A stretch of DNA of 64,000 nt from Torpedo marmorata (taxonomy: Eukaryota). The translations under genes and the position numbers were made by a program. The notes under the pieces were generated by a model. That model was not told the DNA's origin. It made no database searches and saw nothing but the letters and a program-made list of their open reading frames with translations. The DNA lies in assembly GCA_977017645.1 (NCBI GenBank), contig OZ360233.1, positions 25,296,001-25,360,000 on the forward strand, given 5' to 3'. Below, in pieces: positions 29,453-61,644 of the stretch (its first letter is position 1; each line of letters starts with the position of its first letter).

Positions 29453-29491
<39 letters not shown>

Positions 29492-35115: not shown

Positions 35116-38100
35116 AATGTGGAGCTTCCATTTTCCAGATGCAGGGAAGGAGGGTGAAAATGCCTTGCACCTTAACATTCAAATCTTGTTCCAGGCAAAA
35201 CCCTCCATGTTTTTGTGTGTGTGATGCAAGGCAATGTCCCTCTATCGGATCAATCTTAACTGACATTCAGGGATGGTGCTGTGCATCATTGTAAATATTC
35301 GAAAGGGAAGAGTGAAATGAACTGATTGGTATTGAACATATATAAGTGTGCCATTTTGTTGCTAACTCTTTAAATTTAAACATACAGCACGGTAACAGAC
35401 CCTTCCGGCCCAAGAGTCCCTGCCTCCCAAATACACCAATTAACCTACAAACCCTTGTACATTTTTGAACGGTGGGAGGACACTAGAGCACCCAGAGGAA
35501 ACCCCCGCAGACACGGGGAGAACGTATAAACTCATGACAAACAGCGCCAGATTCGAATCCGGGTCGCTGGTGCTGTAATAGCGCTGCACTAACCGCTATG
35601 CTAACCGTGCCGCATAGCAGATATAAATTCAGCCCGCAGCATCCACTGGCATCCTGACGTAACAGAGGGAGGAGCAATCCCCCATTCACACTATCCCTAT
35701 TCCTTGCCCATTTATTTGTGAACACTGTTGGTTCACTGTCACTCAGATCACTGACCCACTGCAGGACCAGATCACTTTTCTGGTCTGACTCCTGTTGAGG
35801 AGAACTGGAAGCCCTCGTTCTCATCCAGAGCCTGTGGGGCAGGAGGTAATGCAGGTGGATGGGGAAGGGTGGTGAACCCTTTCACAAACCTGAACCTGAG
35901 GCAGATTGGTGAGACTGAACACAGGGATCCAACTGGTGCCCTGTCTCCTCCTGTGCATTTAGTTGAAACACTTGGCAGCCAAAGTATCAACCGTGCCATT
36001 TTCATTCCAACCACTGAATTCATTCAAATGCAGAAATATATAATTCCTGAGTTGGCAAAGTGTTTGTTTAAATTCTGCCAAAAGATGAATATAATTAGCC
36101 ACTGGAATAGTATCAGCATTCTCCAACAATAAGGAGGATTGTCCCAACCCTGCCAGGCTTTCTGGCGGTGACTTCTCACCTGGGGCCACTGGACACTGAG
36201 TCTGTGTCACGACTGCAGGACAGGGCTGAACACCTTGCAATTCTTCATATCAGGGCACTGCTGATTGAACCCAAAATCACAAATCATTGGCCAAACTCTG
36301 ACCAATCTCTAATTATAGTTGGTAACAGTCCTCTATTTCTACAATAAACTTTGAAAGAAATTGGCTTCGAACTTATTCAGGTTGAAATGGAAAGAAACAG
36401 AGAACAGTGCTAATTTGGTGCTGAAGAAAAGGTTCTGAGAAGCAGCTCCTCTGCACTGAACATAAGCTCACTTGGAGCCAAAAATGTTGTCCCCTGATAT
36501 CATTGCAGGTTTCAATCTTAACATCCATTCCCCACCAGTCTTGAAGAGCGATTTTAGTCAATGTCGACCAGAGTGAATGTGTGTGTGTGGATGGTGTGCA
36601 GAAAGCCATGAGCTGAGGGATATCTGAAGTGATGGTGCAGCTTTGGTGGACAATTGACAATGCAGAACATGTGCGATAACTTATCAATCCTTCTCTCCTC
36701 ATCCAATGAATCAGGAATGAAATTGGGGGAAAATTTCTCTCTGCAGAAATAATAACCAGACGGAGACCTCTGGCATGATTCTGCACTGCCAATGCAACTA
36801 ATCCTTCTTCCATGCCAGATGGTCATCAACGAGCTCTTTCAAATAGTCCATGAAATATCTGATGCCTGCAAGTATGGAACGGCAGTTAACATAGACTGTC
36901 TACACCGAGGCAGGATCGGGACCAACATCCTGAGGGATCATTTGCTCCTTCTGTTGGGGAGAGTTTAAGGTTTAAGCTAATGTGGAAGGGGGTGGGAATC
37001 CAGGCACAGAGACAGAGGGAAGCAATGCAGAGACCAAAGCAAAAGTAAGAAAAAAGTAAGAGTGGAGTGCAGAAAAGTCAAATGTAAATGAGACAAAGAT
37101 TACGAGAGCCTGAAAGGACAATGAGCGTAGGGCACTTTACCTGAATGCCAGTAGTATTAAAAAAGAATCAGTGAATTTGTGGCACAAATAAGTACAAACG
37201 TGCATGATTTAGTCTCCAGTATGAGTCTTTTTGTGATGGGGTGATGAATCCAGTGGCAGATTTAAATTTAAATTTTGACATACAGCGCGGTAACAGGTCC
37301 TTTCGGCCCACGAGCCTGTGCCGCCCAACTACACCCGATTGACCTACAACCCTCGGTACGTTTTTTGAACTGTGGAAGGAAACCAGAGCACCCGGAGGAA
37401 ACCCACGCAGACACAGGGAGAACATACAAACTCCTTATAGACCGTGCGGGTTTCGATCCCCGGTCTCGATCGCTGGAGCTGTCAGAGCGGAAGCTGACCA
37501 TGCCACCCTGGAATTCTTTGAGGATATAATGAAAGCAATGGATCGAGGGGAAGAAAAAATAGATCAGGTTATTATTAAAATGGTGAATAATTACAGTATG
37601 CTCTCATGCAGAGGGAGTTGGCAGTGCTTGTGAATGAATCACAAAGGTTAATTTGCAGATGCAAGAGGTAATGAAGAAGGGAAATGGGATGTGGGCCTTC
37701 GCTGCTGGAGGGATTGAATTGAAGAGAGGTAGGATCTGCTGCAACTGTACAGGGTACTGGTGAAACCGCACCTGGAGTACTGTGTGCAGTTCGAGTCTCC
37801 TTTTTAAAAAAAATATTTTATTTAAAATTTTTAAATCACGAAATACATAAAGTAAAATATAAAATTATGAAATTATTTGTGATACATTTTCACCCCCCCT
37901 CCCTACCCTCCCCAACCCTCCCAACCCCACTAATCTAATAAAAATATAAAATAAAAATAGAAAAAGAAAAAAAAGAAAGAAAGAGAAGGATAGAGTTAGG
38001 GGAATGCCAATCTATAAACTACTTCTATTATGGAGGTCAAGTATGCCAGTAGACCCAATACCCAGAGACCTTCAAATTCTTAAGCCAACAGCTCTCATAT

Positions 38101-39090
38101 ATGGGCTCCAAATTTAAAAAAAAAAAGATATTTGTTACGTAAATTATAAGTAATTTTTTTCAAGTGGTATACACGAACGAAGTTCTGCATGCCATCTTTC
38201 TAATCCTAAATCTAAATCAGATTTCCATGTAATAGCAATACATTTCTTTGAAACAGCTAAAGCAATTTGCAAAAATTCTATTTGATACATATTTAATTTC
38301 ATCTTAAGACTTAATTTTCTAATATCTCCAAACAAAAATATCATAGGATCCATTGGAAACGTAATTTTAAATACTTTATCTAAAAAATTTTTAACTTTCA
38401 ACCAAAAATCATAAACTTTTGGAGAAAACCATGTAGAATGTACAAAAGATCCTTCTTCTTTATTACATCTAAAACATAAACCTAATAATGTCGCATTAAA
38501 TTTCTTTAATTTTTTAGGTGTTAAATATAATTGATGAAAAAAATGTATAGTACTAATCTATATCTAACATTAATAATCTTCATCATACTTAATTGAGATA
38601 ATTCTTTCCAATGATATTCATCTATTCTTACATTCAAATCTAATTCCCATTTTAATCTTGATTTATGTAATCCTACTTTAGGCATTTTCCTCTGAAACAA
38701 TTTATACATTTGAGAAATAAATTTATTAACATCTCCATTAGTAACTAATAATTCTAATTCATTTTGTCTTGGTAAAATCAAAGCATAACCTAATTTCTCA
38801 ATCAAAAAAGCTCTAATTTGATAATAAGCAAAAAGTGTATTATCTAATATATTAAATTTATCTTTCATTCTTTGAAAAGTAATAAATTTCCCAGCTTCAA
38901 AACAGTCATTAATCTTCTTAATTCCTTTTTGAAACCAAATTTTGAATAATTGATTATTAATAGTAAATGGAATAAGTCCATTTTGATATAAAGGCATCCT
39001 TGAAGAAATCAATCCTTTTCCTCTTATTTCCTTATCCGTCTTATCCATATTTCTAACAAATGTTTAAAAATAGGCAAATTTTTCTTTCTT

Positions 39091-42000
39091 TTTTAAAAAT
39101 ATTTTATTTAAAATTTTAAATCACAAGATACATAAAATAGAATATAAAATTATCAAAATATATGTGATACATTTTCACCCCCCCTCCACTCCCTAACCCC
39201 CCATCCCCACTAAACTAATAAAAATAAAAGTAAAAATAAAAGAAAGAAAGAAAAAGATAAGAGTGAGGGGAATGCCATCTATAAACTAATTCTATTATGG
39301 AGGTCAAAAATGCCAGTGGATCCGATATCCAGAGATCATCAAATCCTTAAACCCACAGCCTTCATATATGGGCTCCAAATTTTTAAGAAAAAATGATATT
39401 TATTACGTAAATTATAAGTAATTTTTTCAAGTGGTATACACGAACGAAGTTCTGCATGCCATCTTTCTCACCCTAAATCTACATCAGATTTCCAAGTAAT
39501 AGCAATGCATTTTTTTGAAACAGCTAAAGCAATTCGCAAAAATTCTACTTGATACATATTTAATTTCTTCTTAATACTAAATTTTTTAATATCTCCAAAC
39601 AAAAATATCATAGGATCCATTGGAAATGTAATTTTAAATACTTTATCTAAAAAATGTTTAACTTTCAACCAAAAATCATAAACTTTTGGACAAAACCATG
39701 TACAATGTACAAAAGACCCTTCCTCTTTATTACATCTAAAACATAAATCTGATAATGCCGGATTAAATTTCTTTAATTTTCATAATTGATGAAAAAAATT
39801 ATATTGTAGTAGCTTCATCTTTTAATTCTAAAGCGAGAGGAGTAGCGATTTTAATCAATAAAAAATTACCATTTAAAATACAATCAGTAGTGACGGATAT
39901 AGCTGGTAGATATGTTTTAGTGCATTGTCAAATTTATTCAGAAATATGGACCTTTTAAAATTTATATATTACAAACCCAGAGGATGAACAATTTATTCAA
40001 GATACTTTTTTACATTTATCTGAGGCTAAGGAAAATATTTTAATTGGAGGAGATTTCAATTGTTGTCTTAATGCAAATATGGATAAAACATCTAGAACAT
40101 CTGTTAGACCTAAGATAGTTAAAAGAATTATTAATTTAATGGATGATCTAAATTTAGTAGATATTTGGAGAAAGTTAAACCCTAGAGAAAAAGATTATTC
40201 ATTTTATTCCTTTCGACATAATTCATTCTCAAGGATTGATTTATTCTTAATATCTTCACAAATTCAAGATAGAATAACTCAAATTTCTTATAAAGCAAGA
40301 ATAATTTCGGACCATTCACCTTTATTAATGATATGTATAATTCCAGAGAAAGAAAAAACTGTATATAACTGGAGATTAGACCCTTCTTTATTAAATAGAA
40401 AAGATTTCTGTGAATATATAAGAAAAGAAATTCAGGAATTTTTAAGAATTAATAATAATTCAGTTGATGATAAGTTTATAATTTGGGAATCTTTAAAAGC
40501 ATATTTAAGAGGATTGATAATAAGCTTCTCGGCAAAAATCAGAAAAGATTATGTGAAAGAAGAAGAAAAACTGGAGGGAGAAATTGAAGTTATGGAAAAA
40601 GATTTTCAAAGAAATAAAACAATTTTTAAGAGACAACGTTTAATTGGGAAAAAATTACATTATAATATATTACAAACTCGAAAAATAGAAAAATTAATTG
40701 GTAGAACAAAGCAAAGATATTATGAATTGGGAGAAAGAGCACATAAAGTTTTAGCATGGCAATTAAAGAAAGAACAAGTTTCTAAAACTATAAATGCTAT
40801 AAAGAAAAGTACTGGAGAAATAACTTATAAACCTCAAGAAATAAATAATTCATTTAAAGAGTATTATCAAAATTTATATACTTCGCAAATGAATCAAGAT
40901 GTTGTAAAAATTGATGATTTTTTAGCCAAAATTACATTGCCCAAATTAAATAGTTTTAATAGAGATTTGTTAGATTTACCAATTACAATGAGAGAAGTAG
41001 GTGAGGCTTTATCATCATTGAATAGTGGTAAATCTCCCGGTGATGATGGATTTCCTGTAGAGTTTTATAAGAAGTTTAAAGATTTATTGATACCTATATA
41101 TATGGAAGTATTAACTCAAATAAGGGAAACTCATTCATTACCGAAAACATTTTTAAATGCTATTATTACAGTTATACCAAAGAAAGATAGATGTATTAAA
41201 AACTGAATCGTATAGGCCTATATCATTGTTAAATGTAGATTATAAATTAATGGCAAAAATCTTGACAAATAGATTAGCTAAGTTTTTACCATTTTTAATA
41301 CATCCAGATCAAGCAGGATTTATCAAAAATAGATATTCAAAGGATAATATAGCAAGATTAATAAGTTTGATTAATTTACAAAAAAAGAAACAGGATTTGC
41401 CGTTAGTGATAGCATTAGATGCAGAAAAAGCATTTGATAGACTAGAATGGAAGTTTTTATTTAAGGTTTTAGAGAAATATGGATTTGGAAATACGTTTAT
41501 AAACTGGATTAAGACTATATATAAGGAACCTACAGCCAGAGTAATTACAAATGGTCAAATATCATCTAAATTCTCTTTGACGCGGTCAACAAGACAAGGA
41601 TGTCCATTGTCACCTGCTTTATTTGTATTGGTAATAGAACCGTTGGCGGAAATGATTAGGAAAGATATTAATATAAATGGGATAAAAGTAGGTGCAGAAG
41701 ATCATAAAATTAGTTTGTTTGCAGATGATGTATTAATATATATGACAAAGTCTATTAAATCACTTCAACAATTAGATAAAATATTGAGGGATTATGGTGA
41801 AATATCTGGATATAAAATAAATTCGGATAAAAGTGAGATAATGGCTTTATCTCAAGGAGACTATACTAAATGTAAAGAAGTTACAAAATTTAAATGGGCT
41901 AAAGAAGCTATTAAATATTTGGGAGTTAAAGTGGATACAAAGTTAGAAAATTTATATAAATTAAATTACATACCTTTATTTCAGAAAATAAAGAAGGATT

Positions 42001-44897
42001 TGGATAATTGGAAAGATTTACCCATAACTTTAATGGGAAGAGTGAATTGTATTAAAATGAATATTTTTCCAAGAGTTCAATATCAATATTCCTCAAAATT
42101 TTTTTAAAGATTTAAAAATTATTATTAGAAAGTTTCTATGGAAAGGAAAATTGGCAAGAGTAAGTATAGATAAATTAACTTGGGAATACGAAATGGGTGG
42201 ATTACAACTTCCTAATTTTCAATATTATTATAAGGCAGCACAATTAAAATTTATAAATGAACTATTTGATTTAACTAAAAACACGGCTTGGATTAATATA
42301 GAATTGAGTAATATAGGAGAAAGAAATAAGGAAGATATTATTTATAAATGGAATTCTAAATTATTATTGATTAAAAAGAAAAAGTCACCGATTATTAAAC
42401 ATCTATTGGAAATTTGGAATCAATTAGATAATGAAATAGGACGAAAAGGATCAATTTCTTTAAATATGCCATTATATCAGAATTTATTATTACCATTTTC
42501 TATTGATAATCAATTTTTAAAATTATGGTATCAAAAAGGAATTAAGAAGATCAAAGATTGTTTTGAGGCAGGAAGATTTGTTACTTTTACTAGATTGAAA
42601 GAAAAATTTGGAATAATGGATAATACAATTTTGGCTTATTATCAAGTTAAAGGATTTTTAGTTGAGAAATTAGGGAATCAATTAATATCCCCTAGACAAG
42701 ATGGGTTAGAGTTATTAATTACTAATGGAAATGTTAACAAATTTATATCGCAAATGTATAAATTACTTCAGAAAAAAATGCTTAAAGTAGGACTACATAA
42801 ATCTAGATTAAATTGGGAATCAGATCTAAATACTAGTATAGATGAACAACACTGGAAAGAACTATGTAAACTGAGTATGACTAAGATTATTAATGTTAGA
42901 TATAGATTAGTACAATATAATTTTTTTCATCAATTATATATAACACCTAAAAAATTAAAGAAATTCAATTCGGCATTGTCAGATATGTGTTTTAGATGTA
43001 AAGATGAAATAGGTTCTTTTGTACATTGTACATGGTCGTGTTTGAAAATTAAAAATTTTTGGTCTAAAGTCAAGGATTTTTTAGATAGAATTCTTAATAT
43101 TACGATTCCAATGGATCCTATGATATTTCTGTTTGGAGATATTAAAAAAATCAGTATTAGAAATAGATTGAATATGTATCAAATAGAATTTTTACGAATT
43201 GTGTTAGCAATTTCAAAAAAATGTATTGCTATTACTTGGAAATCAGACTTAGATTTAAATTTGGATAGATTACATGCAGAGTTACGCTCGTGTATACCAT
43301 TGGAAAAAATTACGTATAATTTACGAGACAAATATCATTTCTTTCTGAAAATTTGGAGCCCATACATGAGAATTATGGGTATGAATTAATTCTCTAGAAG
43401 TTAGTACCGCTGACAAAGTAACCTCCAATATACAAGTAGAGTTAGCTTGAAATAGTTTTCTCCTCACACTAACACTAACTTTCTTAACTTTATTATTCAA
43501 TCTATTTCTTTTCTTTTAACTAACATTTTTATATTCTATTTTTTTTTTTTTTTATTAGATAGCGTGGGAGGGTTGGGGAGGGGAGGGTGGGAAGGGGGGG
43601 TGGTAATATATCACATGTATTTTCAATAATACACTATTTTTTTTGATATATGTATTTTGTGATTTTAAAAAATTAAATAAAATTATTTTAAAAAAATAAA
43701 AAAAAATTATATTGAACTTATCTATATCTAACGTTGATAATCTTCGTCATACTTAATTTACATAATTCTTTCCAGTGATTTTCGTCTATATTTACATTCA
43801 GATCTAATTCCCATTTTAATCTTGATTTATGCAGTCCTACTTTAGGCATTTTCCTCTGAAACAATTTATACATTTGAGAAATAAATTTATTAATATCTCC
43901 ATTAGTAACTAATAATTCTAATTCATTTTGTCTTGGTAAAGTCAAAGCATAACCTAATTTCTCAGTCAAAAAAGCTTTAATTTGATAATAAGCCAGAAAA
44001 GTATTATCTAATACATTAAATTTATCTTTCATTCTTTGAAACGTAATAAATTTCCCAGCTTCAAAACAATCACTAATCTTCTTAACTCCTTTTTGAAACC
44101 AAATTTTAAATAATTGATTATTAATAGTAAATGGAATAAGTTCATTTTGATATAAAGGCATCTTTGAAGAAATTAATCCTTTTGCTCCTATTTCCTTATC
44201 CGTCTTATTCCATATTTCTAACAAATGTTTAAAAATGGGCGAATTCTTCTTTTTTATTGATATTAATTTAGAATCCCATTTATAAATAATTTCTTCTTTG
44301 AGATCTTCTCCTATATTATTTAATTCTATCTTAATCCAAGCAGAAGATTTAGTTGAATCAAAAAAATTCATTGACAAATTTTAATTGAGCTGCTTTATAA
44401 TAATTTTGAAAATTAGGAAGTTGTAAACCACCCATTACATAATTCCAAGTTAATTTTTCCATACCTACTCTTGCTAACTTTCCTTTCCATAAAAATTTCC
44501 TAATATTTAAATTTAAATCTTTAAAAGATTTTTGAGGAATTCCATAAGGAATTGATTGAAAAATATAAAAGTAAACACGAAAATCTGTAGACACCTTGGA
44601 TGAAGTAAAAAACACAAAAGCTGGAGAACTCAGCAGGTCAAACAGTGTCTTTTATGTAGCAAAGGTAGAAATACATAACCGACGTTTCAGGCTTGAGCCC
44701 TTCTTCAAAGTATACTGAATTCTTGGAAAAATATTCATTTTAATACAATTTACCCTTCCCATTAAAGTTATAGGTAAATCTTTCCAATTCTCTAAATCTT
44801 TCTTTATTTTCGCAAATAATGGTAAATAATTTAATTTATATAAATTATCCAATTTTATATCAACCTTTACTCCCAAATATTTAATACCCTCCTTTGG
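39091..44897 (-). mobile_element. Second L1 3' fragment nested in the outer L1
   Basis: New poly-T/3'UTR begins at 39091; near-duplicated target aattttt(t)ctttctt on both sides; ORF2 pieces 39468-39668 and 43718-44876. Confidence 0.8.
39808..43700 (+). mobile_element. Third L1, near-complete but frameshifted ORF2, nested in the second
   Basis: Starts in EN (SSFNSKARGVAIL); ORFs 40079-43389; TSD aaaaaaattatattg at 39792-39806 and 43701-43715. Confidence 0.9.
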
Positions 44898-47251: not shown

Positions 47252-49106
47252 AAGGTTCAGGGCAGTAGATTAAAGATGTAAGTGAGGATTAATTCCTTTT
47301 GACAGAGAGGATTGTATTCACTGGAATTAAGAAAAATGAGAGGGGATCTTATAGAAATATGCAAAATTATAAAACAGATAGATAACAGCGGCAGGAATGT
47401 TCCTCCTCTGACAGGTGAAAGTCAAACAAGGGGACATCTCATGAAGACGGAGGAGTATATTTAGGACAGAGATGATGAGGAACTGCTTTTCAGAGAGCGT
47501 AGCAAATCTGTGGAATTCCCTGTTAAAGGAAGTTGTGGAGACCTGTTCATTAGATCTATTCAAGATAGATTTTTGCGTTGTTGGGGAATCAAGGGTTATG
47601 GGGAACAGACAGGTATTTGGAACTGAGTCCAGGTCCAGTTCAGCTATGATCTTGTTGGATGGCGGAGCAGGCTCAATGGCCTACTCCTGCTCCTATTTAT
47701 GTTCTTTGGTATACCAAACATACCAAGTATTTCACAGATAAACCTGATCCCAAGCCTGAGGACAGGTGCCCAGAAATGTGATTAAAACCATTTGAATCAT
47801 TCACACCATTTGGACCTCAGTGGCAAGGCCATCATTTCAGCCCATCCTGACCTATCCTTGAGGTGAACACTTGCTGGCTCATTCTGAGGACAGTCACAAG
47901 TGGTTCTGGAGTCACATAGTGGCCAGTCCACGAATGGATGGCAGATTTCCTACTCACAAGGAAAGAATGAATCAGATGGTTCAAAGAATCCAGCTCTTAT
48001 TGCCAGAGTTCTTGACACTGGATTTTGTGCAGAATCGATTGTAGAGAACTTGAACTCTCAACTGCTTTGTTAGGATTTGAACACATCTCCAGTCCAGCAG
48101 CTGAATCAATCTGCTACATTACCCCATATAGTCATTGCAAGGAGCAGTTTGAAGAAGGACAGATGGGATTCACTAAGGTTCAGTGAGTGAGTTCCAGTGC
48201 TTGTGACGGCTGAAGGCACAGTCACTGATGCTGTGACAACGGGAGTCCAACTTTCAGAGAGACCAGAGTGGAATTGAATTGTTTATTGCCATGTGTACTG
48301 AGACACAGAGAAAAACTTCATAATGCATGCTATCCAGGTAGGTCAAACCCTCCCAAGAACAGGAAGTAGTACAAGATAAAACAGAGTGTAGTTTAAAGAG
48401 AAAAGATCAGTGAGAACATTGTCAGTAATTCTGACAGTGTGAGAGTTGAAATTAAAGAGAGTGGACTGATTGTGGTGAATGCAAGGAGCGAATCCGCAAG
48501 GAACAGCTCACAAAATGTTGCTACTCTCACGCGCCGTGGAGAATCGTAATGTTTTTCAGAGGGTTGTTTTGTTGGTGAAACATACAGAGATGGCAAGAGG
48601 CATGACCACAGGAGATCTGAATGTCAGCACTGGAGTTTTCACACCAGAGGTATCCCAGGTTCAGTCTGAACAGAGAGGAGGGGCCTCACTCATTCAGCAG
48701 GCCCAATGTCATAAATCAGTCTGCAGACCCACACAGGTGCTGAGACAACAGGAATTCGTGCAATGTTTCCTCTGGTCACAAACTGCATCTTTCACCGCAT
48801 TTCACCTTCTGGAGATTGCACTTATTAACATTAGGGCAGCTAAACGTCCCTCAGCTTGGAAATATCTCACAGACCCTGCTGTGACCCGACTGGTTCCCAG
48901 CGAAATGTGCTCCTGGTGTTTGATTTTATTTTCTCAGTCAATGCTACAAGCAGAGATGAGCAACTCACCATTTAAAAAAACCCTGACTTCATTCTAATAT
49001 ACAGTTTACTGCAGATTGACTCTCAGTTTAAGTCTGGGCCGAAGTTGAGAAGCCAGCTGACACCAGACATAGTCCAGTTTGTAAGTTTTCTATTTCTCAT
49101 CTGCAG

Positions 49107-49405
49107 AATTGTCCGTCTTGTTACAAAATCCATCCACTGAAGAGATTTGGATCAACAAGACCGCTACTCTGGTGTGCCTGGTTGTGGGTGCTGATCTGAG
49201 CCAGGTCGAAATCTACTGGCAGGTGAGCGGAAGGGAGAGAATGAAAGGAAATGTGACCCAACAACCGAGCGAGGAAGGGACACTAAGCAGAGTGATCAGC
49301 CAATTCCAGACCAGTGTGGAGGAGTGGTGCAGTGGGGCAGTGTACACTTGTTCTGCCCAAGGACCTTCTTCATCCTCACCAGTGTCAGCACAGACAGTAC
49401 CAAAG
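49107..49405 (+). pseudogene. IgW: CH3-like exon, copy 1; a 4-nt deletion near the 3' end puts the donor out of phase
   Basis: cagacagtaccaaag versus cagacagagagtaccaaag in copies 2 and 3; 299 nt. Confidence 0.8.
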
Positions 49406-49493
49406 GTGGGCAAAATGTCAGCGATTAGATGGACAACATCTGTGACCTTGAGTAAAAATGTTTACGTCTCCTTTCTTTGCTCGTCTGTTCCAG

Positions 49494-49811
49494 TCGAGAT
49501 AAAAGGGCCTGAGGTCAGACTGCTGCCACCACAACATGAAGACACCAAGAGTAGGAACACGGCCACCCTCGAGTGTGTGGTCTCTGGATTCTACCCGGAC
49601 CTCATAAACGTCACCTGGGAGAAAGACAGCTCCCTGATCTCCTCCAACACCCGCACGACACGGACTGCTCTGGAGCAGGCAGGGACTTTCAGTGCCAGCC
49701 ACTTTCTGACTGTGAGGACAGAGGAGTGGAAGAAAGGCTCGGTCTTCAGCTGCACAGTGTCTCATCCCCCCTCCAACACCAGTATCAGCCGGGAGGTGAA
49801 AAACATGCAAG
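49494..49811 (+). CDS. IgW: CH4-like exon, copy 1, intact
   Basis: 318 nt, ttccag| and |gtacgg, about 77% aa identity to CH4 by hand count; expression unproven. Confidence 0.75.
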
Positions 49812-50349
49812 GTACGGTCCTGGGATTCACTCCAATCTTGACAACCTTTGCCCATGTCACAAACTGGGGCCAAATTAGTTCACTCGTATTGTCGTGGTTG
49901 TGTGAATGAGCTGATAACCTTAATGCATAGATGAGCAACAATTATATTCACTTTCACATCTTCCAAAACACCTCAATAGCCCGTCACAGAGGAGAGCAAT
50001 GCTGCTGTCCTTGACTCTGTTCACAAGCCTCTAGAGAATGGCTTCAATGCACAACTTGATGGGACAGTGTGGGATTTTAAACTACAAAGTAACAACAGGA
50101 AATAAGTTGCCGTTGTCAGTCGAACGGAGAAACTGAAAGGAACATAAAATTAACAGGTTCACTGATGTCCTTTTGTAAAGGACACCTGCCTTCTACACAC
50201 TTTCCCCTTATCCTTCAGACCCACACCAAACTCATCAGTGTCTCTGATAGACCTGGCAAGTCAGTCAGTGGAGCAGAGCAAGAAATGCCGGCCTTGTCAG
50301 CGAGTCTCACCCCACGAACAAAAGATGACATAATGACGGGAAGATCAAG

Positions 50350-50645
50350 GTTTGGACACCAGCATCTCTTCAAAGTTGAGCAAGTCTGCCTGTCCCAGAA
50401 CTGCAAGGGGAGGATGACGTCCACTTTTTGTGAGCAGCGTCTCAGTGATTTCGAGCAGTTCAGGGTAACCTGGGAGATAGATGGAAGTGAAGGCTGCTGG
50501 AAGACTCGGGGCTCAAAGAGGAACAGGGTCAAAGGCATCTCAGCCAACTCATGATCCACTGCAGATTGGGGGAGTGTGGTTGAGTACTTGTCTTTGTTCA
50601 ATTGTTTATCAACACTGGAGAAGAGGTCCATCAGGAAGTCTCAAC
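50350..50645 (+). pseudogene. Decayed CH5 copy 1
   Basis: FCEQRLSDFEQFRVTWEIDGSE...EKRSIRK aligns to CH5 LCEVVHGDLEGFRVTWQVDGSE...EKRSIKK; in-frame stop, second Cys lost. Confidence 0.85.
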
Positions 50646-50974: not shown

Positions 50975-51277
50975 CATTGTCTGTCCTTTTACAAAATCCA
51001 TCAACTGAAGAAATTTGGATCAACAAGACTGCTACTCTGGTGTGCCTGGTTGTGGGTGCTGATCTGAGCCAGGTCCAAATCTACTGGCACGTGAGCGGAA
51101 GGGAGAGAATGAAAGGAAATGTGACCCAACAACCGAGAGAGGAAGGGACACTAAGCAGAGTGATCAGCCAATTCCAGACCAGTGTGGAGGAGTGGTGCAG
51201 TGGGGCAGTGTACACTTGTTCTGCCCAAGGATCTTCTTCATCCTCACCAGTGTCAGCACAGACAGAGAGTACCAAAG
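50975..51277 (+). CDS. IgW: CH3-like exon, copy 2, intact
   Basis: 303 nt, ctgcag| and |gtgggc, canonical Cys/Trp; expression unproven. Confidence 0.78.
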
Positions 51278-51365
51278 GTGGGCAAAAGGTCAGCGATTAG
51301 ATGGACAACATCTGTGACCTTGAGTAAAAATGTTTATGTCTCCTTTCTTTGCTCGTCTGTTCCAG

Positions 51366-51683
51366 TCGAGATAAAAGGGCTTGAGGTCAAACTGCTGCCA
51401 CCACCACATGAAGACACCAAGAGTAGGAACACGGCCACCCTCGAGTGTGTGGTCTCTGGATTCTACCCGGACCTCATAAACGTCACCTGGGAGAAAGACA
51501 GCTCCCTGATCTCCTCCAACACCCGCACGACACGGACTGCTCTGGAGCAGGCGGGGACTTTCAGTGCCAGCCACTTTCTGACTGTGAGGACAGAGGAGTG
51601 GAAGAAAGGCTCGGTCTTCAGCTGCACAGTGTCTCATCCCCCCTCCAACACCAGTATCAGCCGGGAGGTGAAAAACATGCAAG
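51366..51683 (+). CDS. IgW: CH4-like exon, copy 2, intact
   Basis: 318 nt, canonical splice sites, open frame. Confidence 0.78.
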
Positions 51684-52221
51684 GTACGGTCCTGGGATTC
51701 ACTCCAATCTTGACAACCTTTGCTCATGTCACAAACTGGGGCCAAATTAGTTCACTCGTATTGTCGTGGTTGTGTGAATGGGCTGATAACCTTAATGCAT
51801 AGATGAGCAACAATTATATTCACTTTCACATCTTCCAAAACACCTCAATAGCCCGTCACAGAGGAGAGCAACGCTGCTGTCCTTGACTCTGTTCACAAGC
51901 CTCTAGAGAATGGCTTCAATGCACAACTTGATGGGACAGTGTGGGATTTTAAACTACAAAGTAACAACAGGAAATAAGTTGCCGTTGTCAGTCGAACGGA
52001 GAAACTGAAAGGAACATAAAATTAACAGGTTCACTGATGTCCTTTTGTAAAGGACACCTGCCTTCTACACTCTTTCCCCTTATCCTTCAGACCCACACCA
52101 AACTCATCAGTGTCTCTGCTAGACCTGGCAAGTCAGTCAGTGGAGCAGAGCAAGAAATGCCGGCCTTGTCAGCGAGTCTCACCCCACGAACAAAAGATGA
52201 CATAATGACGGGAAGATCAAG

Positions 52222-52517
52222 GTTTGGACACCAGCATCTCTTCAAAGTTGAGCAAGTCTGCCTGTCCCAGAACTGCAAGGGGAGGATGACGTCCACTTTT
52301 TGTGAGCAGCGTCTCAGTGATTTCGAGCAGTTCAGGGTAACCTGGGAGATAGATGGAAGTGAAGGCTGCTGGAAGACTCGGGGCTCAAAGAGGAACAGGG
52401 TCAAAGGCGTCTCAGCCAACTCATGATCCACTGCAGATTGGGGGAGTGTGGTTGAGTACTTGTATTTGTTCAATTGTTTATCAACACTGCAGAAGAGGTC
52501 CATCAGGAAGTCTCAAC
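52222..52517 (+). pseudogene. Decayed CH5 copy 2
   Basis: Same lesions as copy 1, offset by 1872 bp. Confidence 0.85.
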
Positions 52518-52846: not shown

Positions 52847-53149
52847 AATTGTCTGTCCTTTTACAAAATCCATCCACTGAAGAGATTTGGATCAACAAGA
52901 CCGCTACTCTGGTGTGCCTGGTTGTGGGTGCTGATCTGAGCCAGGTCCAAATCTACTGGCAGGTGAGCGGAAGGGAGAGAATGAAAGGAAATGTGACCCA
53001 ACAACCGAGAGAGGAAGGGACACAAAGTAGAGTGATCAGCCAATTCCAGACCAGTGTGGAGGAGTGGTTCAATGGGGCAGTGTACACTTGTTCGGCCCAA
53101 GGAACTTCTTCATCCTCACCAGTGTCAGCACAGACAGAGAGTACCAAAG
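52847..53149 (+). CDS. IgW: CH3-like exon, copy 3, intact
   Basis: 303 nt, canonical splice sites; about 57% aa identity to CH3 by hand count. Confidence 0.78.
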
Positions 53150-53237
53150 GTGGGCAAAAGGTCAGCGATTAGATGGACAACATCTGTGACCTTGAGTAAA
53201 AATGTTTACGTCTCCTTTCTTTGCTCGTCCGTTCCAG

Positions 53238-53555
53238 TCGAGATAAAAGGGCCTGAGGTCAGACTGCTGCCACCACAACATGAAGACACCAAGAGTAGGA
53301 ACACGGCCACCCTCGAGTGTGTGGTCTCTGGATTCTACCCGGACCTCATAAACGTCACCTGGGAGAAAGACAGCTCCCTGATCTCCTCCAACACCCGCAC
53401 GACACGGACTGCTCTGGAGCAGGCGGGGACTTTCAGTGCCATCCACTTCCTGACTGTGAGGACAGAGGAGTGGAAGAAAGGCTCGGTCTTCAGCTGCACA
53501 GTGTCTCATCCCCCCTCCAACACCAGTATCAGCCGGGAGGTGAAAAACATGCAAG
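53238..53555 (+). CDS. IgW: CH4-like exon, copy 3, intact
   Basis: 318 nt, canonical splice sites, open frame. Confidence 0.78.
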
Positions 53556-54290
53556 GTACGGTCCTGAGATTCACTCCAATCTTGACAACCTTTGCCCATG
53601 TCACAAACTGGGGCCAAGTTAGTTCACTGAAACATCGGTGTGGCATTGTTGTGCTTGAGTGAGTGAGCTGATAACCTCAATGCATAGAACAGCAACAATT
53701 ATATTCACTGATGTGATTTCACATGGAAACATAGAAAACTTACAGCACAATACAGGCCCTTCGGCCCACAAAGTTGTGCCGAACATATCCCTACCTTACA
53801 AATTACTACACTTACCTATAGTCATTTTTCTAAGCTCCACGTACCTATCCAAAACTCTCTTTAAAGACCCTGTCGTATCCGCCTCCACCACATCTTCCAG
53901 ACACCTCAATAGCCCGTCACAGAGGAGAGCAACGCTGCTGTGCTTCATTATGCTCAAAAGCCTCTGGAGAATGGCTTCAACGCCAACTTGAAGGGACAGT
54001 ACAGGAGTTTAAACTAGAAAGCAACAAGAGGAAATAAGTTGCTGTTCTCAGTCGAAGTGATGGCGAAACTGTGAAAGGAACATTAGATTAACAGGTCACT
54101 GATGTCCTTTTGTAAAGGACACCTGCCTTCTACACTCTTTCCCCTTATCCTTCAGTCACACACCAAACTCATCAGTGTCTCTGATAGGCCTGGCAAGTCA
54201 GTCAGTGGAGCAGAGCAAGAAATGCTGGTCTTGTCAGCGACAGTCTCACCCCACGAGAGAAGGATGACATAATGACTACAAGATCAAGGT

Positions 54291-54580
54291 TTGGACACCA
54301 GCATCCCAGAAACTTTGAGCAAGCCTGCCTGTCGCCAGAACTGCAGGAAGAGGATGATGACCACTTTGTGTGAGCTGCCTCTCAGTGATTTTGAGCAGTT
54401 CAGAGTAACCTGGGAGATAGATGGACGTGAAGTGAAGACTCGGGGCTCAAGAGGAACAGGGACAAAGGTGTCTTCAACTGACTCACAGTCCACTGCAGAT
54501 TGGGGGAGTCGGGCTGAGTACTTGTATTTGTTCAATTGTTTGTCAACACTGGAGAAGAAATCCATCACGAAGTTTCAACA
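54291..54580 (+). pseudogene. Decayed CH5 copy 3
   Basis: DTSIPETLSKP...TLCELPLSDFEQFRVTWEIDG...EKKSITK aligns to CH5 with deletions; second Cys lost; no clear splice sites. Confidence 0.85.
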
Positions 54581-55059
54581 TTTCAATGGAGCTCAGTTGG
54601 AGTCTGTTTGCATTAGCGTGATGTACATCCATCCAGAGGCAGGCTGTCCAATATAATTATCCTTTTGTATTCGAGTCCAGGAAGTCCAGGACATGATTAG
54701 TTCACCTATTAATTCTGTTGAGGAAAGAGAAGGTGTCTCCAGAATGTCACTGTTACTTGTATGGAGGGCAGCATGTTGTCACATGGTTCACAATTTGAAC
54801 AGGGTTGTGAATGTAACATTCTGCAGAAGCCCTAATTCACCATTTGTTCTCAAGTGACTGCAGCCGAGAGACCAGTCCTGATCCAATTTACAGGGTTTCA
54901 CATTCTTTGCAGAAGGACAAACACAAGCAACGTTATGGTCGATCTGGAGATGAGATGTTATTTCTGGATTGGTGGTTCACTCCACACTTATTCCCTTCAT
55001 TTTTTCCGTAGAGAGTGGCCAAGAAGGGAAATAAGGATAATCCAGGAAACCTCCAATCT

Positions 55060-55891
55060 GTGGTGGGAAACCTCTCGAAAAGAGACTTTGGGATAGTGTA
55101 TATGTGCACATTTTGAACATCATGGTCAGATTAGGTCAGTCAATTTGGCTTTATGTGGGGCAGATTATGTTTTACTTAGGTGATTGATTTTTTTTTAGGA
55201 AGTGACAAAGTTGGTCGATGAGGGTGGGGAACTGGATGTTGTCCACATGGATTTCAATGAGACATTTGAGAAGGTCCCTCATGGTAGGCTGATCCAGAAA
55301 GATCGGATTCATTAAATCGACGGTGAATGGATCGTCTGGATTCGGAAGTGTCTGGCCCTGAGAAAACAGAGCATAGTTGTAGAAGCCCGTCACCAGTGGT
55401 GTTCCACAGGGAACGGTGTTGGGAATCCTTTTGTTTGTGATGTACATAAATGACCTGGATGAAAATATACGTGTGTGGGTCAGTAAATTTGCAGATGACA
55501 CTGTGGAGTTGTGGACAGTGTAGTGGGCTGTCAAAGAATACAACAGGATGTAGATCAGTTACAGATATGGGCAGAGAAATGGCAGATGGAGTTTGATCCA
55601 GAAAATTGTGAGTTGTTGAACTTTGGGAAGTCAAAATTAATGGGAACATATACAGTTCATGGCAGGACTCTTCAAAGCGTTGATGTGCAGAGGGATCTGG
55701 GAGTACAGATCCACAGCTCCTTAAAAAGTAGATAAGGTGCTAAAGAAGATGTATGGTATGCTTGTCTTCTTTTGGTGGAGCATTCAGTACAAAAGTAAGC
55801 AAGTCACGTTGCAGCTATATAAAACTGGATGGAGTGCACTTGGAGAACTGCATGCAGTAGAATCATGAATGGCATCGAGAGTGTGGACTGT
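55060..55891 (+). mobile_element. Degenerate CR1 LINE, continued at about 59205-59420 after an L1 insertion
   Basis: [22 protein letters not shown] motifs. Confidence 0.8.
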
Positions 55892-58800
55892 AAAGATTTT
55901 TGTGAATATATAAGAAAAGAAATTCAGGAATTTTTAAGAATAAATAATTCGATTAATGATAAATTTATAATTTGGGAATCTTTAAAAGCTTATTTAAGAG
56001 GTTTGATAATAAGTTTTTCGGCAAAAATTAGAAAAGATTATTTGAAAGAAGAAGGAAAATTGGAAAGGGAGATTGAATTTATGGAGAAAGATTTTCAAAG
56101 AAATAAAACCATTTTTAGGAGACAACGTTTAATTAGGAAGAAATTGCATTATAATATATTACAAACTCGAAAAATAGAAAAATTAATTGGTAGAACGAAA
56201 CAAAGATATTATGAATTAGGAGAAAGAGCACATAAAGTTTTAGCATGGCAATTAAAAAAAGAACAAGTTTCTAAAACTATAAATGCTAAAAAAAAAAGTA
56301 CTGGTGAAATAACTTATAAACCTCAGGAAATAAATGAATCTTTTAGAGAATATTATCAGAATTTATATACCTCTCAGATTGATCATGATGATACAAAAAT
56401 TAATAGATTTTTATCCAAAATTACATTACCTAGACTAAATAATTTTAATAGAGATATGTTAGATTTACCTATTACAATGAGAGAAGGAGTTGAAGCTTTA
56501 TCGACATTGAAAAGTGGTAAATCTCCTGGTGATGATGGATTTCCGATGGAGTTCTATAAAGAGTTTAAAGATTTATTGATACCTATATATATGGAAGTAT
56601 TGACTCAAATTAAGGAAACTCATTTATTACCGAAAACCTTTTTGAATGCTATTATTACAGTTATACCAAAGAAAGATAGAGATGTATTAAAAACGGAGTC
56701 ATACAGACCTATATCATTGTTGAATGTAGATTATAAAATAATGGCAAAAATTTTGACAAATAGATTAGCTAAGTATTTACCGATTTTAATACATTCAGAT
56801 CAAGCAGGATTTATTAAAAATAGATATTCGAAAGATAATATAGCAAGATTAATAAGTTTAATTAATTTGCAAAAAAGGAAACAAGATTTGCCGTTGGTGA
56901 TAACATTAGACGCAGAAAAAGCATTTGATAGACTAGAATGGAATTTTTTATTTAAGGTCTTAGAGAAATATGGATTTGGAAATACTTTTATAAATTGGAT
57001 TAAAACTATATATAAAGAACCTACAGCTAGAGTAATTACAAATGGTCAAATATCATCTAAATTCCCCTTGATGAGGTCAACAAGACAAGGATGCCCTTTA
57101 TCACCTGCTTTATTTGTATTGGCAATAGAACCGTTGGCTGAAATGATTAGGAAAGATATTAATATAAATGGGATTAAAGTAGGTACAGAAGAGCATAAAA
57201 TTAGTCTATTTGCAGATGATGTATTAATATATATGACGAAATCTATTGTATCACTTCAACAATTAGCTAAGATATTGAGGGAGTATGGTGAGATATCTGG
57301 TTATAAAATAAATTCGGATAAGAGTGAAATAATGGCTTTATCTCAAGGAGATTATACTAAATGCAAAGAAGTTACAGGATTTAAATGGGCTAAAGAAGGA
57401 ATAAAATATTTGGGAGTTAAAGTAGATACAAAATTGGAAAATTTATATAAATTAAATTATATACCTTTATTTCAGAAAATAAAGAAAGATTTGGAGAATT
57501 GGAAAGATTTACCTATAACTTTAATGGGAAGAGTGAATTGTATTAAAATGAATATTTTTCCAAGAGTTCAATATCTTTTTCAATCTATTCCTTTTGGAAT
57601 TCCTCAAAATTTTTTAAAAGATTTAAAAATTATTATTAGGAAGTTTTTATGGAAGGGAAAATTAGCGAGAGTAAGTATGGATAAATTAACTTGGAATTAC
57701 GAGATGGGTGGATTACAACTCCCCAATTTTTTATATTATTATAAGGCAGCTCAATTAAAGTTTATTAATGAATTTTTTGATTTAACTAAATCTACTGCTT
57801 GGATTAATATAGAATTGAATAATATAGGGGAGAGATATAAAGAAGATATTATTTATAAATGGAATTCTAAATTATTATTAATTAAAAAGAAAAATTTATC
57901 GATTATTAAACATTTCTTGGAAATTTGGACACAGTTAGACAATGAGATAGGACAAAAAGGGTTATTATCTCCAAATACGCCATTGTATCAGAATTTACTA
58001 TTACCTTTTTCTAGTGATAATTAATTTTTAAAATTATGGTTTCAAAAAGGAATTAAGAAGATTAAAGATTGTTTTGAGGCTGGAAGATTTGTTACATTTT
58101 CCAGGCTGAAAGAAAAATTTGGAATATTGGATAATACAATTTTAGCTTATTATCAGGTTAAAGGATTTTTAGTTGAGAAATTGGGGAATCAATTAATAGC
58201 TCCAAGACAGGATGGATTAGAATTATTAATTACTAATGGAAATGTTAACAAATTTATATCACAAATGTATAAATTACTTCAGAGAAAAATGCCTAAGGTA
58301 GGATTTCATAAATCAAGATTAAGATGGGAATCAGACTTAAATATTAATATAGATGAAAAACATTGGAAAGATTTATGTAAATTGAGTATGACTAAAATTA
58401 TTAATGTTAGGTATAGATTAGTACAATATAATTTTTTTCATCAATTATAGTTAACACCTAAAAAATTAAAGAAATTTAATCCGGCATTATCAGATATGTG
58501 TTTTAGATGCAAGGATGAAATTGGTTCTTTTGTTCATTCAACATGGTTATGTCCTAAAATTAAGGATTTTTGGTCTAAAGTTAAAGATTTTTTGGATAGA
58601 ATTTTTAATATTATGGTTCCAATGGACCCTATGTTATTTTTATTTGGAGATATTAAAAAATTTAGTATTAGAAATAGATTAAATATGTATCAAATAGAAT
58701 TTTTGCGAATTGTTTTAGCAGTTTCAAAAAAATGTATTGCTATTACTTGGAAATCAGATTTAGATTTGAATTTAGATAGATTACATGCAGAATTACGTTC

Positions 58801-59204
58801 TTGTATACCATTGGAAAAAATTACATATAATTTACGTAATAAATATCATTTCTTTTTGAAAATTTGGAGCCCATATATGAGAATTATGGGTATGAATTAA
58901 TTCTCTAGAAGTCGGCTCCGCTGGCAAAACTAACCTCCAATATATAAATAGAATTAGCTTGTAATTTGTTTTCTCCTCACTTTAATTCTTTATTATTCAA
59001 TTCTTTTCTTTTTTTTCTTTATAAAAAATATATATATTTTTTTTCTCTTTTTCTTTTATTTAGAGTAGTGGTGGGGGGGTTGGGGAGGGGAGGGTGGGAG
59101 GGGGGGAGGAAATATATCACATGTACTTGGAATGATATATTATTTTTGATTAATGTATTTTGTGATTTTAAAATTTAAATAAAATTAAAAAAAAAAAAAA
59201 AAAA
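55892..59204 (+). mobile_element. L1 LINE, 5'-truncated
   Basis: ORF2 RT and C-terminal Cys motif with stops; poly-A; 15-bp TSD gagagtgtggactgt at 55877-55891 and 59205-59219. Confidence 0.95.
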
Positions 59205-59548
59205 GAGAGTGTGGACTGTCACTGTCTTCTCCCCAGGTTAAAAGTGTAACACACAAGAGAATATGTGTTTAACCTGACACGGAGCAAGTTTTAGCAAGAT
59301 GTGGGAACAAATCTTTCATTCAGACAGTGGTTGGTGCCTGGAACGGGCTGTCAGGGATACTGGTGGAAGCAGATACAATAGTAGCATTTAAGAGACTTCT
59401 GAACAGACACAAGAATATGAAGGAAATGGTGAAAGACTTTACTTTTAGATGTGGTAAGGTCACTCATGATGTAAAAGTTCCCCAGGTTGTTGTAAGAGCA
59501 GAACATTGCAGATGAACATAAAATGAATGAAAGAGGTTATGTTCCCAG

Positions 59549-59712
59549 TAGATTCCCTCTTGAGTCTACCCTATCCATTGGGTGAGATGGAGACGAGTCG
59601 GGTCACCAGGTTCTCGTCAGAGGAGATTGCCATGGACTGGATGGCTAACACACCACTGGCTAACCCCGAATTGATGGTTAACCCTATAACAGTGTGGTTT
59701 ACCTCACTATGA
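59549..59712 (+). pseudogene. Heavily decayed, internally deleted CH6/secretory exon copy
   Basis: gttcccag| acceptor as in CH6; VTRFSSEEIAMDWMAN aligns with VNKFSPADIYVAWMAN; FTSL* with FTSCA*; flanks 59430-59548 and 59930-60040 resemble 32230-32375 and 33060-33170. Confidence 0.7.
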
Positions 59713-61644
59713 AATTGTCCTACACTCGAACAAACAAAACTAAATCCCTTTTCATTAAATGAGAATGAAAATATATTCCATAATTCAATATCAATCATCA
59801 AAAGTTATGAGATGTTGCTGTTACTATTGAAAGTTCTTTGTGTCAGGTCCAACCCTGTGTGAAACCTGTGTCGACCCCACCAGAGGTTAAGTGTATCTAT
59901 GTGTCAATGCACTAAACAAGGAGTCAGTTGAGGGTGTTCCTTGCTGGTGTGTTTTGGGACACAGAAAATGAGGGACTTGGACATGAGGGGTGGAAGGTGC
60001 TGCTGGTTGGGAGGAACAGGTGAACTTGGATCAATGGTTTCCAGTCTATGTTTCACTAGATACATTTATATATCTCTATATGTATATAGTATAGTTTCAC
60101 CCATCTAAAGAATGGAACACTCCCAATACATATGTTTCAAATATAGTGGTAAGGGATACTATATTTAAACTTTGTGAAGGCATTGACTGAACTCATTCAG
60201 AAAATGGAGAGATACAGAGAGAAGGGGTGATAGTTCGGCAGTGAAGAGCTGTGGCCTGCAGCAACGTGGTCAGTGCTGCAGCTATTCACGAGAGTTATCA
60301 ATGGTCGGACAGAAAGCCACATTTCCAAGTTTGTCTCACTCACAAGGCTGGCAGACCATCAGCAGTGCCTCTGGAAGGCTTGAGCAAGAAGCAGAATAAT
60401 AACAGGTCAAATCACTGGGCATTTCTGTGGCAAAAACCAGCAGAATGGTTTCGGGCCAAATAAAGTATTTTCTAAATGGTGCAGAAATGAATGCAGTGAA
60501 GATTCAGAGAGTCCAAGGGCTCCATGTGCAGAGATAATTTACCTTGCAGCAAGCTGGAGAAAAGAATCAAACAGGAAGGGTGGTCTTTATATCAGGACAG
60601 GACAGCAAGAGGGGAGGAGTTATGCTGTAGGTTAGACCACATGTGCAATACTGAGCAGTTTTAGATACCACACCCAAGGAAGGAAATTCCGGCTGGTGGG
60701 AGTGTTGAACAGACCTGGACTCTCAAGGGTAAATTACAAGGTGAGATTGTTAAATGATGGTGTATCCTCTGAAATTTGGAAAGGTGAAGGAAGATACATT
60801 CAATGTTTTCAGAATGTTAAGTGGAACTGACAGAGTTGATTAGAAGAAATTATTTATTTTTGTTTATTTGATTTAGTGTATTGTTTATTGTCACGTGTAC
60901 CGAGATACAGTTTAAAACTGAGTTTTGCGTGCTATCCAGGCATGGCAAAATGTCGCCACTCTCTCGTTCCGTTTTGGGTTCAGGAATTCACTGAAACCCA
61001 CATGGTAAAAACAAAGTATATTGAATAATCATAATGAGTGTCAACTGGGATTCTGGCATTTAACAATACAGGCAAATCAAATTCATGCACAGCAGCATCC
61101 TGCCATTCCAGGAGCCGGCTCGTCATCGGTCGGTGGATGGGAAGTGACTCAAACAGCCGCTCCGTGCTATCAGTTATAGACCGTGTAAGAGCAGCTTCCA
61201 TAAGCACAGTTACCGTCCTGGTTCCGTTACCCTCCCAAGTAGTCGTTGTGCTCCAAGACGTTCAACAGGCTGTGTCTTCAGAATTCCATGAGTTTCCATG
61301 GTACTTGAGTAGCTGTACTTTGTAAATGCAAACCTGCTTCTAAAAAGTACCTCCAGGGACCCCTGGAATATGACAAATGGATTGCAGGTTGAAATAACAG
61401 AGGACAAATTCCTTTTCCTTTGTAATACCTGCTCCTTCAGGTGTAGAATGCTTGCCCTGTTTTGGGAGAAGATACTGTGCTTTGTTCACCAATGAGTGGG
61501 AATGGTGACTGGGTCAAAGATTCACCTTGAACTTGCTCATGTTTCTTCATCACTCTTTGAGGATCAGAACTTTGTCTGAACAGATAACTCTGCCATCCAA
61601 AAAACAAAAAAAGGTGAAGATCAGTCCTGCTACTTTTTCCTCAG

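Follow-up and report, generated by a model that had tools for sequence, protein, structure and literature searches.

A constant-domain cassette beyond the secretory end of an IgW gene

What can an antibody gene do with constant-domain exons that lie 3′ of the point where its secreted transcript ends? The question is raised by a stretch of 64,000 nucleotides from Torpedo marmorata (contig OZ360233.1, positions 25,296,001 to 25,360,000; G000:C45:25296001-25360000, where G000 is the searched genome of 6.2 Gb and C45 the contig), hereafter called the window. Judged by its sequence, the window holds a single IgW heavy-chain cluster, encoded on the + strand: a minicluster of variable (V), diversity (D), joining (J) and constant (C) segments. 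Downstream of CH6 and its secretory tailpiece, it carries extra copies of the third and fourth constant exons, here called C3′ and C4′. The first-pass annotation of this DNA had proposed that these exons are reserved for a membrane form, and we regard this as the best reading, with the amendment that their inclusion is optional. Specifically, it is probable that C3′-C4′ constitutes a functional, membrane-restricted, optional stalk cassette in T. marmorata that is chosen by RNA processing.

Two transmembrane (TM) exons, TM1 and TM2, were located by a hydropathy scan (an initial TM motif scan gave no match) 3′ of the window, downstream of the copies, where a TM exon had been anticipated beyond 64 kb. 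They are 65-85% identical in amino acids (aa) to the TM portions of named IgW proteins. A TM exon upstream of the C3′/C4′ copies is ruled out, as TM1 and TM2 map downstream. The observed order is CH6-poly(A), (C3′-C4′-psiCH5)n, psiCH6, TM1, TM2, where psi marks decayed copies, and the exons are in phase 1 (Table 1). Tandem duplicates of C exons are found between the secretory exon and the TM exons, a layout of the coelacanth IgW1 type.

Immunoglobulin (Ig) heavy chains use an established poly(A)-versus-splicing switch. Under such a switch, the cassette would be out of reach for a transcript that ends at the CH6 poly(A) site, giving the secreted chain of six constant domains, and equally for one that ends at the short secretory exon. 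A read-through transcript would join the CH4 donor either to TM1, giving the classical four-domain receptor, or to a C3′ acceptor. The predicted product is V-C1-C2-C3-C4-(C3′-C4′)n-TM with 4+2n C domains, where n for the window cluster would be at most 2 in frame. Its likely role would be that of a taller receptor whose membrane-proximal domains can evolve free of the demands placed on the secreted chain.

Spliced use of the cassette

Spliced use of the copies is evident in contigs of sequencing runs that are likely RNA, where both C3′-C4′ and C4′-TM junctions occur. These contigs inform on presence only; the C3′-C4′ junctions were mapped on a single-copy cluster (L055), and runs X2 and X5 come from one study. 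C3′ is joined to C4′ across an exact GT..AG intron in X1 and X2. The X1 contig measures 517 nt and shows 10 differences in 515 letters, and the main exons would differ from it at 44/197 and 50/318 positions (about 94). It ends 2 letters past C4′ (letters not shown), a stop that fits a branch between C3′ and TM because both begin with AA. Unspliced contigs running into the C3′-C4′ intron were found in X10, and X3 yielded no C3′-C4′ joint.

Three loose contig ends abut the start of TM1: CH4 in X1 (27 letters), CH4 in X2 (19 letters, translating like the main C4 of Narcine protein P0018) and C4′ in X5 (13 letters). The ends of CH4 and C4′ share four letters, and an X5 contig that starts two letters before the shared AG (letters not printed) fits CH4 and C4′ both feeding TM1. 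The CH4-TM join in X1 and X2 corresponds to the four-domain TM form, and because CH4 also splices straight to TM, the cassette is optional. No CH2 end, as a two-domain TM form would produce, occurs among the three loose ends, and contigs cannot show absence. TM1 is joined to TM2 in X1, X2 and X3. At TM1 (L055:8537-8679), X2 and X5 reveal two sequence classes in organism B with about 7 differences, which are possibly two IgW subfamilies.

A branch is also present in public gene models of Mobula, whose isoforms have 1170 aa in common and then continue with C5-C6 (secreted), with C3′-C4′-TM or with TM; in a 15-member Mobula cluster, C3′ occurs in 11 of 12 TM members and in none of the 3 secreted ones. 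Narcine P0018 and P0050 join CH4 to C3′-C4′, and it is from public gene models only that the predicted junction of CH2 or CH4 with C3′ comes. In skate P0052 and sawfish P0002, the C6 secretory tail is followed by C3′-C4′ and then TM, a read-through that shows the genomic order and not a real transcript. By comparison, none of 7 shark TM proteins (5 Chiloscyllium, Mustelus, Squalus) includes C3′, and Chiloscyllium TM and secreted isoforms have their last C4 in common, with 1065 or 811 aa shared. The membrane form described for sharks, in which every domain also belongs to the secreted chain, does not account for the ray locus because of the C4′-TM join in X5, the three-way branch in Mobula and the presence of the cassette in 32 of 33 clusters (below).

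Origin of the cassette by one block duplication

The cassette is part of a second CH3-CH6 block 3′ of the secretory exon, which the first-pass annotation had described and which we confirm with its exons in the places predicted. C3′ is 54-58% identical in aa to CH3, and C4′ is 76-77% identical to CH4 (three copies each). AG/GT ends are present on all of these exons, so far in line with the claim that they are intact; the first C3′ is frameshifted. Since this copy (C3′a) carries a 4-bp deletion, two of the three pairs in the window are in frame. C3′b, C3′c and C4′c, the three that were scanned, score as Pfam C1-set domains above the cut-off, and a structure search of the PDB returned generic Ig C domains only, with IgNAR as the best single-domain match.

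The triplication that had been reported is real and includes more than C3′ and C4′. The tandem unit is C3′-C4′-psiCH5, about 1.87 kb long, with copies a and b 98.5% identical and the exon-bearing parts of b and c 96.3% identical; because the unit spans psiCH5, this exon is triplicated too, and psiCH6 is single. The decay described for the CH5 and CH6 copies is borne out. psiCH5 aligns with a score of 231 (maximum of 200 shuffles, 36), contains frameshifts and stops, and lacks the second Cys. psiCH6 has a weak best local match (40, against a maximum of 39 in 200 shuffles) and a clear collinear global alignment (68, against a mean of -5.9 and a maximum of 36.6 in 300 shuffles); its 3′ half, including the secretory tail, is deleted, and its copy of the AATAAA at 32868 reads AATGAA.

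Collinear intron remnants on both flanks agree with the single old block duplication proposed earlier. In addition to the remnants in Table 1, 32234-32343 corresponds to 59425-59534, and 33054-33172 corresponds to 59928-60043. These pairs support one event, whose 5′ limit would have been within the CH2-CH3 intron (and thus 3′ of the short secretory exon) and whose 3′ limit would have been past the CH6 poly(A) site. L1/LINE (long interspersed nuclear element) sequence makes up much of 36400-60050. An assembly artefact is ruled out, given that differences of 1.5-4% separate the copies and that 8 contigs carry them.

The short secretory exon is single-copy and stands outside the block. With the nurse-shark secreted tail as query, tblastn gave a single match, located after CH2, in each of the 3 clusters searched (E values of 3e-5, 2e-6 and 3e-6) and no homologue 3′ of CH4 in the same three. 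Because this search matched nothing 3′ of CH4, the cassette has no recognisable secretory end behind it.

The frameshifted pair is also the site of a side observation: at 49085-49906, C3′a, the 88-nt intron and C4′a form one open frame of 274 codons. The 4-bp deletion therefore means that a retained C3′a-C4′a intron would keep the frame. A second 299-nt C3′ is found in the 24.93-Mb cluster of C45.

Recurrence and copy number across the genome

The same arrangement recurs throughout the genome, in which 35 CH6 matches and 38 TM matches were found (36 TM after dropping two partial 87-nt matches). There are 33 clusters with both CH6 and TM, and 32 of them hold a cassette of 1-5 pairs in between. 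In the stretches fetched upstream of TM, at least one C3′-C4′ pair is present at 34 of 36 TM exons and at least one intact pair at 31 of 36. Pairs per TM exon number 1 in 7 cases, 2 in 15, 3 in 8, 4 in 2, 5 in 2 and 0 in 2, these counts being lower bounds where a 10-kb stretch ended. By exon, 74/80 C3′ and 74/80 C4′ are intact, compared with 34/35 CH3, 34/34 CH4 and 32/33 CH5. Length classes number 11 among the 81 psiCH5 copies and 4 among the C3′ copies, of which 75 of 80 measure 303 nt.

Between 22.4 and 29.6 Mb, C45 carries 23 IgW clusters about 300 kb apart and 95-99% alike, 9 on the minus strand followed by 14 on the plus strand. About 33 clusters exist genome-wide, several of them close to the ends of the similar-sized contigs C41-C44, and the array reads as a large recent expansion. 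Cassette and TM without a CH6 match nearby occur at C42 119.917-119.933 Mb, with five intact pairs, and at C41 134.113-134.124 Mb; both are partial duplicates.

Under our model, the block arose once in the ray ancestor, and unequal crossing-over would now vary n from 0 to 5 between clusters. CH5′ and CH6′ likely decayed because only a C3-C4 unit normally precedes TM and is useful there. Whether several C3′-C4′ copies are used in tandem is evenly balanced. A competing view of this step, otherwise compatible with a membrane-restricted cassette, is that one pair is functional and spliced singly and that unequal crossing-over produced the 1-5 copies as a neutral by-product, so that receptor length would not follow copy number as the first-pass annotation had suggested. 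Its chance falls only a little short of even. Several features fit neutrality: the unit carries psiCH5 with it, clusters 95-99% alike differ in copy number (0-5), breaks affect 10 of 79 pairs, and the Mobula models and Narcine P0018 have a single pair. However, internal copies keep their frames and splice sites (69/79 pairs intact), two pairs precede TM in the sawfish model, and the X1 contig stops where a C3′/TM branch would make it stop.

An ancient paralogue under constraint

In an IQ-TREE analysis of 43 C3 domains (31 of the 74 extracted rows, being redundant repeats or near-copies, were excluded), the 13 C3′ rows make up one side of a branch with 100/97 support. They come from four ray orders, with skate, sawfish, devil rays, Narcine and the window represented. 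The C3′ clade is sister to the main ray C3 (86/78), and all ray rows are separated from those of sharks (98/93). FastTree recovered the C3′ group from all 74 rows as well. Every C3′ lacks the extra Cys four residues after the first canonical Cys, which is present in the main C3 of skates, sawfish, mobulids and sharks and lost in electric-ray CH3; a second N-glycan site is present in 4 of the 5 C3′ shown. The tree shows C3′ to be an ancient ray paralogue and suggests that it arose by duplication on the ray stem.

This age bears on the proposal that the pair is a decaying duplicate, leakily spliced, whose intactness reflects concerted evolution or conversion and which makes no useful protein. 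Conversion would pair C3′ with the CH3 of its own species, and the tree gives the opposite across four orders. Because C3′ forms one clade across ray orders, recent gene conversion from CH3, which the first-pass annotation had named as a possible refutation, did not hold up; as the cause of conservation in CH3/CH4 copies, it is ruled out by the C3 tree. Furthermore, psiCH5 in the same unit has gathered indels, whereas C3′ and C4′ mostly have not.

Conservation between species points the same way. Identity to Narcine, Rhinoraja, Pristis and Mobula is 90, 74, 74 and 70% for C3′ compared with 86, 55, 68 and 53% for CH3, and 92, 75, 84 and 70% for C4′ compared with 86, 68, 71 and 70% for CH4. All 8 comparisons thus find the cassette domains at least as conserved as their main counterparts, and 7 find them more so. 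The values of 90-92% to Narcine, as opposed to 86% for CH3 and CH4, again run counter to decay. Points in favour of decay are a ratio of nonsynonymous to synonymous substitution rates (dN/dS) near 0.8 between CH3 and C3′, the CH4-TM bypass and the one cluster that has no cassette. On balance this proposal is largely refuted, and we consider it very improbable.

The selection on C3′/C4′ that had been suggested earlier is seen among the copies themselves. Distinct variants number 18 synonymous and 32 nonsynonymous among C3′ copies (ratio 0.53) and 21 and 39, plus one stop, among C4′ copies (0.57), based on full-length copies, with contigs C1, C2, C47 and C56 excluded and one divergent C4′ row dropped. 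The corresponding figures for the main exons are 5/21 for CH3 (1.16), 6/17 for CH4 (0.88) and 12/19 for CH5 (0.45). An N/S of about 0.55 points to purifying selection on the C3′/C4′ copies. Between CH4 and C4′, dN/dS is 0.42-0.46 (bootstrap upper limits 0.79-0.86). As a separate observation, the ratio of nonsynonymous to synonymous diversity (piN/piS) across 32 clusters is 2.17 for CH3 and 1.41 for CH4, from few variants, versus 0.43-0.59 for C3′, C4′ and CH5, and it is possible that the shared domains CH3 and CH4 are under relaxed or diversifying selection.

Evidence against a membrane-restricted cassette

Several observations weigh against the reading that we favour. The public gene models are predicted, with no sight of the reads behind them, and the RNA nature of the runs is guessed rather than recorded as such. 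All three loose ends at TM1 fall below the 31-letter standard for a bridge. The C4′-TM join is a single X5 contig whose loose letters number 13, or 15 if the shared AG is counted, the closest organism (X1) had CH4-TM only in front of TM1, and no contig showed what enters C3′ or a junction from C4′ to the next C3′. Cassette exons are broken in 12 of 160 cases, compared with 2 of 102 for CH3-CH5, and a cluster at C41 134.46-134.49 Mb, fetched whole and otherwise intact, is without a cassette. C4′ was not recovered as one clade, its rows standing mostly apart from the main C4 of their own species. Relative-rate tests against two sharks were non-significant (p 0.08-0.6), and the p values for the variant counts among copies (0.025 for C3′, 0.035 for C4′) are rough because the copies share history and are not independent. 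Finally, dN/dS between CH3 and C3′ is 0.81-0.84 with an interval that spans 1, a figure that sums both lineages, and in this comparison the suggested selection does not stand out.

Gene models that place C3′-type domains upstream of C5-C6 or of a main-type C3 (skate P0019; sawfish P0002, P0003 and P0012) also count against restriction to the membrane form. Those with C3′ ahead of C5-C6 (P0019, P0002 and P0012) are what would be expected if C3′-C4′ were functional and also entered secreted chains, through copies 5′ of CH6 in other rays or through C4′ read-through to an intronic poly(A) site. Yet such models may merge neighbouring clusters, since the C3′ of skate P0019 is identical to that of P0052 at 99 of 100 positions, and none of the 80 C3′ copies in the fetched stretches of G000 lies 5′ of a CH6. 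Read-through from C4′ would add a 33-aa tail ending in Cys-Glu in many copies, and 42 of 77 copies have an AATAAA roughly 1.05 kb farther downstream. However, the tail is not conserved in Narcine P0018, and the AATAAA is inside an apparent LINE remnant (assigned by eye); as a tailpiece, the tail was judged to be a chance feature. Use of the pair in secreted chains is therefore improbable in our estimate, and a membrane-restricted cassette is retained as the best account of the locus.

The IgW cluster of the window

The remaining features of the window (Table 1) agree with its assignment to IgW. A single V, D, J and C set is present, and this set is repeated across G000. The six C1-set exons, with a tailpiece on C6, were matched domain by domain to named IgW proteins, the closest being Narcine bancroftii (electric ray) P0018 and P0027 at 85-93% per C domain. 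The Cys-rich short secretory exon behind C2 is present, as are TM exons 3′ of the secretory exon.

Table 1 Features of the window and of the TM exons beyond its 3′ end
Feature	Position	Strand	Remarks
IgW heavy-chain V exon with 3′ recombination signal sequence (RSS)	5651..5947	+	Open frame, sequence; aa identity with V of elasmobranch IgW proteins 57-82%
Joined D-J segment behind 12-bp-spacer RSS	6368..6433	+	Sequence
CH1	14490..14810	+	3′ end inferred from in-phase GT donor at 14811
CH2	15806..16111	+	
Cys-rich short secretory exon	16763..16875	+	Single copy, outside duplicated block; nurse-shark secreted tail tblastn E 3e-5
Main CH3	19057..19356	+	
Main CH4	19442..19759	+	3′ end joined to TM1 in X1 contigs and X2 (organism-B version)
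Main CH5	30286..30606	+	
CH6 with secretory tailpiece	32376..32873	+	Stop about 32761; AATAAA at 32868
CH2-CH3 intron remnant, 5′ part of block	36609..36722	+	66% to 17974-18084
CH2-CH3 intron remnant	47905..47979	+	78% to 18426-18500; collinear in C43 cluster too
C3′ copy a	49107..49405	+	299 nt, frameshifted by 4-bp deletion near 3′ end
C4′ copy a	49494..49811	+	Intact
psiCH5 copy a	50340..50640	+	Approximate limits
C3′ copy b	50975..51277	+	Intact
C4′ copy b	51366..51683	+	Intact
psiCH5 copy b	52212..52510	+	Approximate limits
C3′ copy c	52847..53149	+	Intact
C4′ copy c	53238..53555	+	Intact; one X5 contig joins a C4′ end to TM1
psiCH5 copy c with flanks	54206..54606	+	
psiCH6 with flanks	59425..60043	+	Secretory tail deleted, AATAAA to AATGAA
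TM1	G000:C45:25361831-25361973 (L001:1831-1973; window-equivalent 65831-65973)		1.8 kb past window 3′ end
TM2	Starts C45:25364049 (L001:4049; window-equivalent 68049)		4.0 kb past window 3′ end

D and J are joined in the window (6361-6433) and in the C43 cluster (L020), with differing junction letters, and D is unjoined, with its 3′ RSS present, in the 22.5-Mb cluster of C45 (L013). Germline joining of D to J by RAG was likely independent in these clusters and later than their multiplication. The CH4-CH5 intron measures 10.5 kb in the window versus about 0.86 kb in most clusters, lengthened by an insertion at 20539-30198 that resembles a long-terminal-repeat retroelement with an L1 inside. Young, A+T-rich L1-like copies with long open frames, 88-94% alike, occupy 22897-26656, 39941-43706, 55892-59204 and 61645-64000.

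Implications for IgW function

What function IgW and IgD serve is a long-standing open question, and as a rule the membrane and secreted forms of an antibody have their Ig constant domains in common. A ray-wide domain pair that can enter only the membrane form would imply selection on IgW as a receptor, apart from its role as an antibody. Clusters with 0-5 copies would furthermore offer a natural series in which receptor height can be set against antigen capture and signalling. IgW-positive B cells could also be marked through C3′, which is predicted to be an epitope specific to the membrane form; the available passages of one review note that IgW-specific reagents are lacking (PMC5192425).

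Comparison with known systems

The human membrane IgE long form (M1′/CemX) likewise gains an extra extracellular segment in the membrane form only, by alternative splicing. That segment is short, non-Ig and unrepeated, whereas the ray cassette consists of whole Ig domains.

As far as the available passages describe it, elasmobranch IgW (IgX/IgNARC; nurse shark, skate and dogfish) resembles the window in its V-D-J-C cluster, six C exons and C6 secretory tail, and also in its short secretory exon after C2, TM exons, CH4-derived four-domain TM form and C3-C4 duplications (PMC5192425, PMC4279169). Reviews, in the portions consulted, list IgW TM forms with either 2 or 4 C domains and put the C exons of a cluster at 6-8 (PMC5192425, PMC4279169, PMC6795676). 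In the shark IgW proteins compared here, extra C3-C4 pairs come before C5-C6, and the C4 ahead of TM is also the one used in the secreted form; unlike these, the window has a distinct paralogous pair 3′ of the secretory exon.

Membrane IgD of sturgeon and teleosts and C2-C3 of shark UrIg2 provide two-exon repeats that are homogenised and build long TM chains (PMC5192425, PMC12227049). In the excerpts of these sources, however, no poly(A) site is described that would separate such repeats from a secreted form, and UrIg2 is non-rearranging. The cassette is not mentioned in the passages of bioRxiv 10.1101/2022.06.22.497154, and no description of it in rays was found in the literature searched, which did not cover the primary IgW papers; a prior description is possible, and novelty is provisional.

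The closest parallel is coelacanth IgW1, in which, according to the passages available, after the secreted-form exons come four tandem C3-C4-C5 duplications and two TM exons (PMC5192425). The layout is the same, and the logic is presumably the same as that of the ray cassette. Coelacanth IgW1, so far as described there, places many V, D and J segments ahead of a single C region and has a three-exon unit. The ray unit differs in comprising C3′-C4′ and a dead CH5, not three coding exons, and in occurring in about 33 clusters with varying copy number. The ray cassette is likely independent of coelacanth IgW1, because the C3′ tree, which held no coelacanth rows, points to a within-ray origin. A broader scheme, which we advance tentatively and rate as somewhat doubtful, is that all rays use C5-C6 for secretion and an ancient C3′-C4′ pair for the membrane, that 0-5 copies per cluster give electric rays receptors of 4-14 C domains, and that rays and coelacanth together exemplify the repeated, independent evolution of membrane-only stalks.

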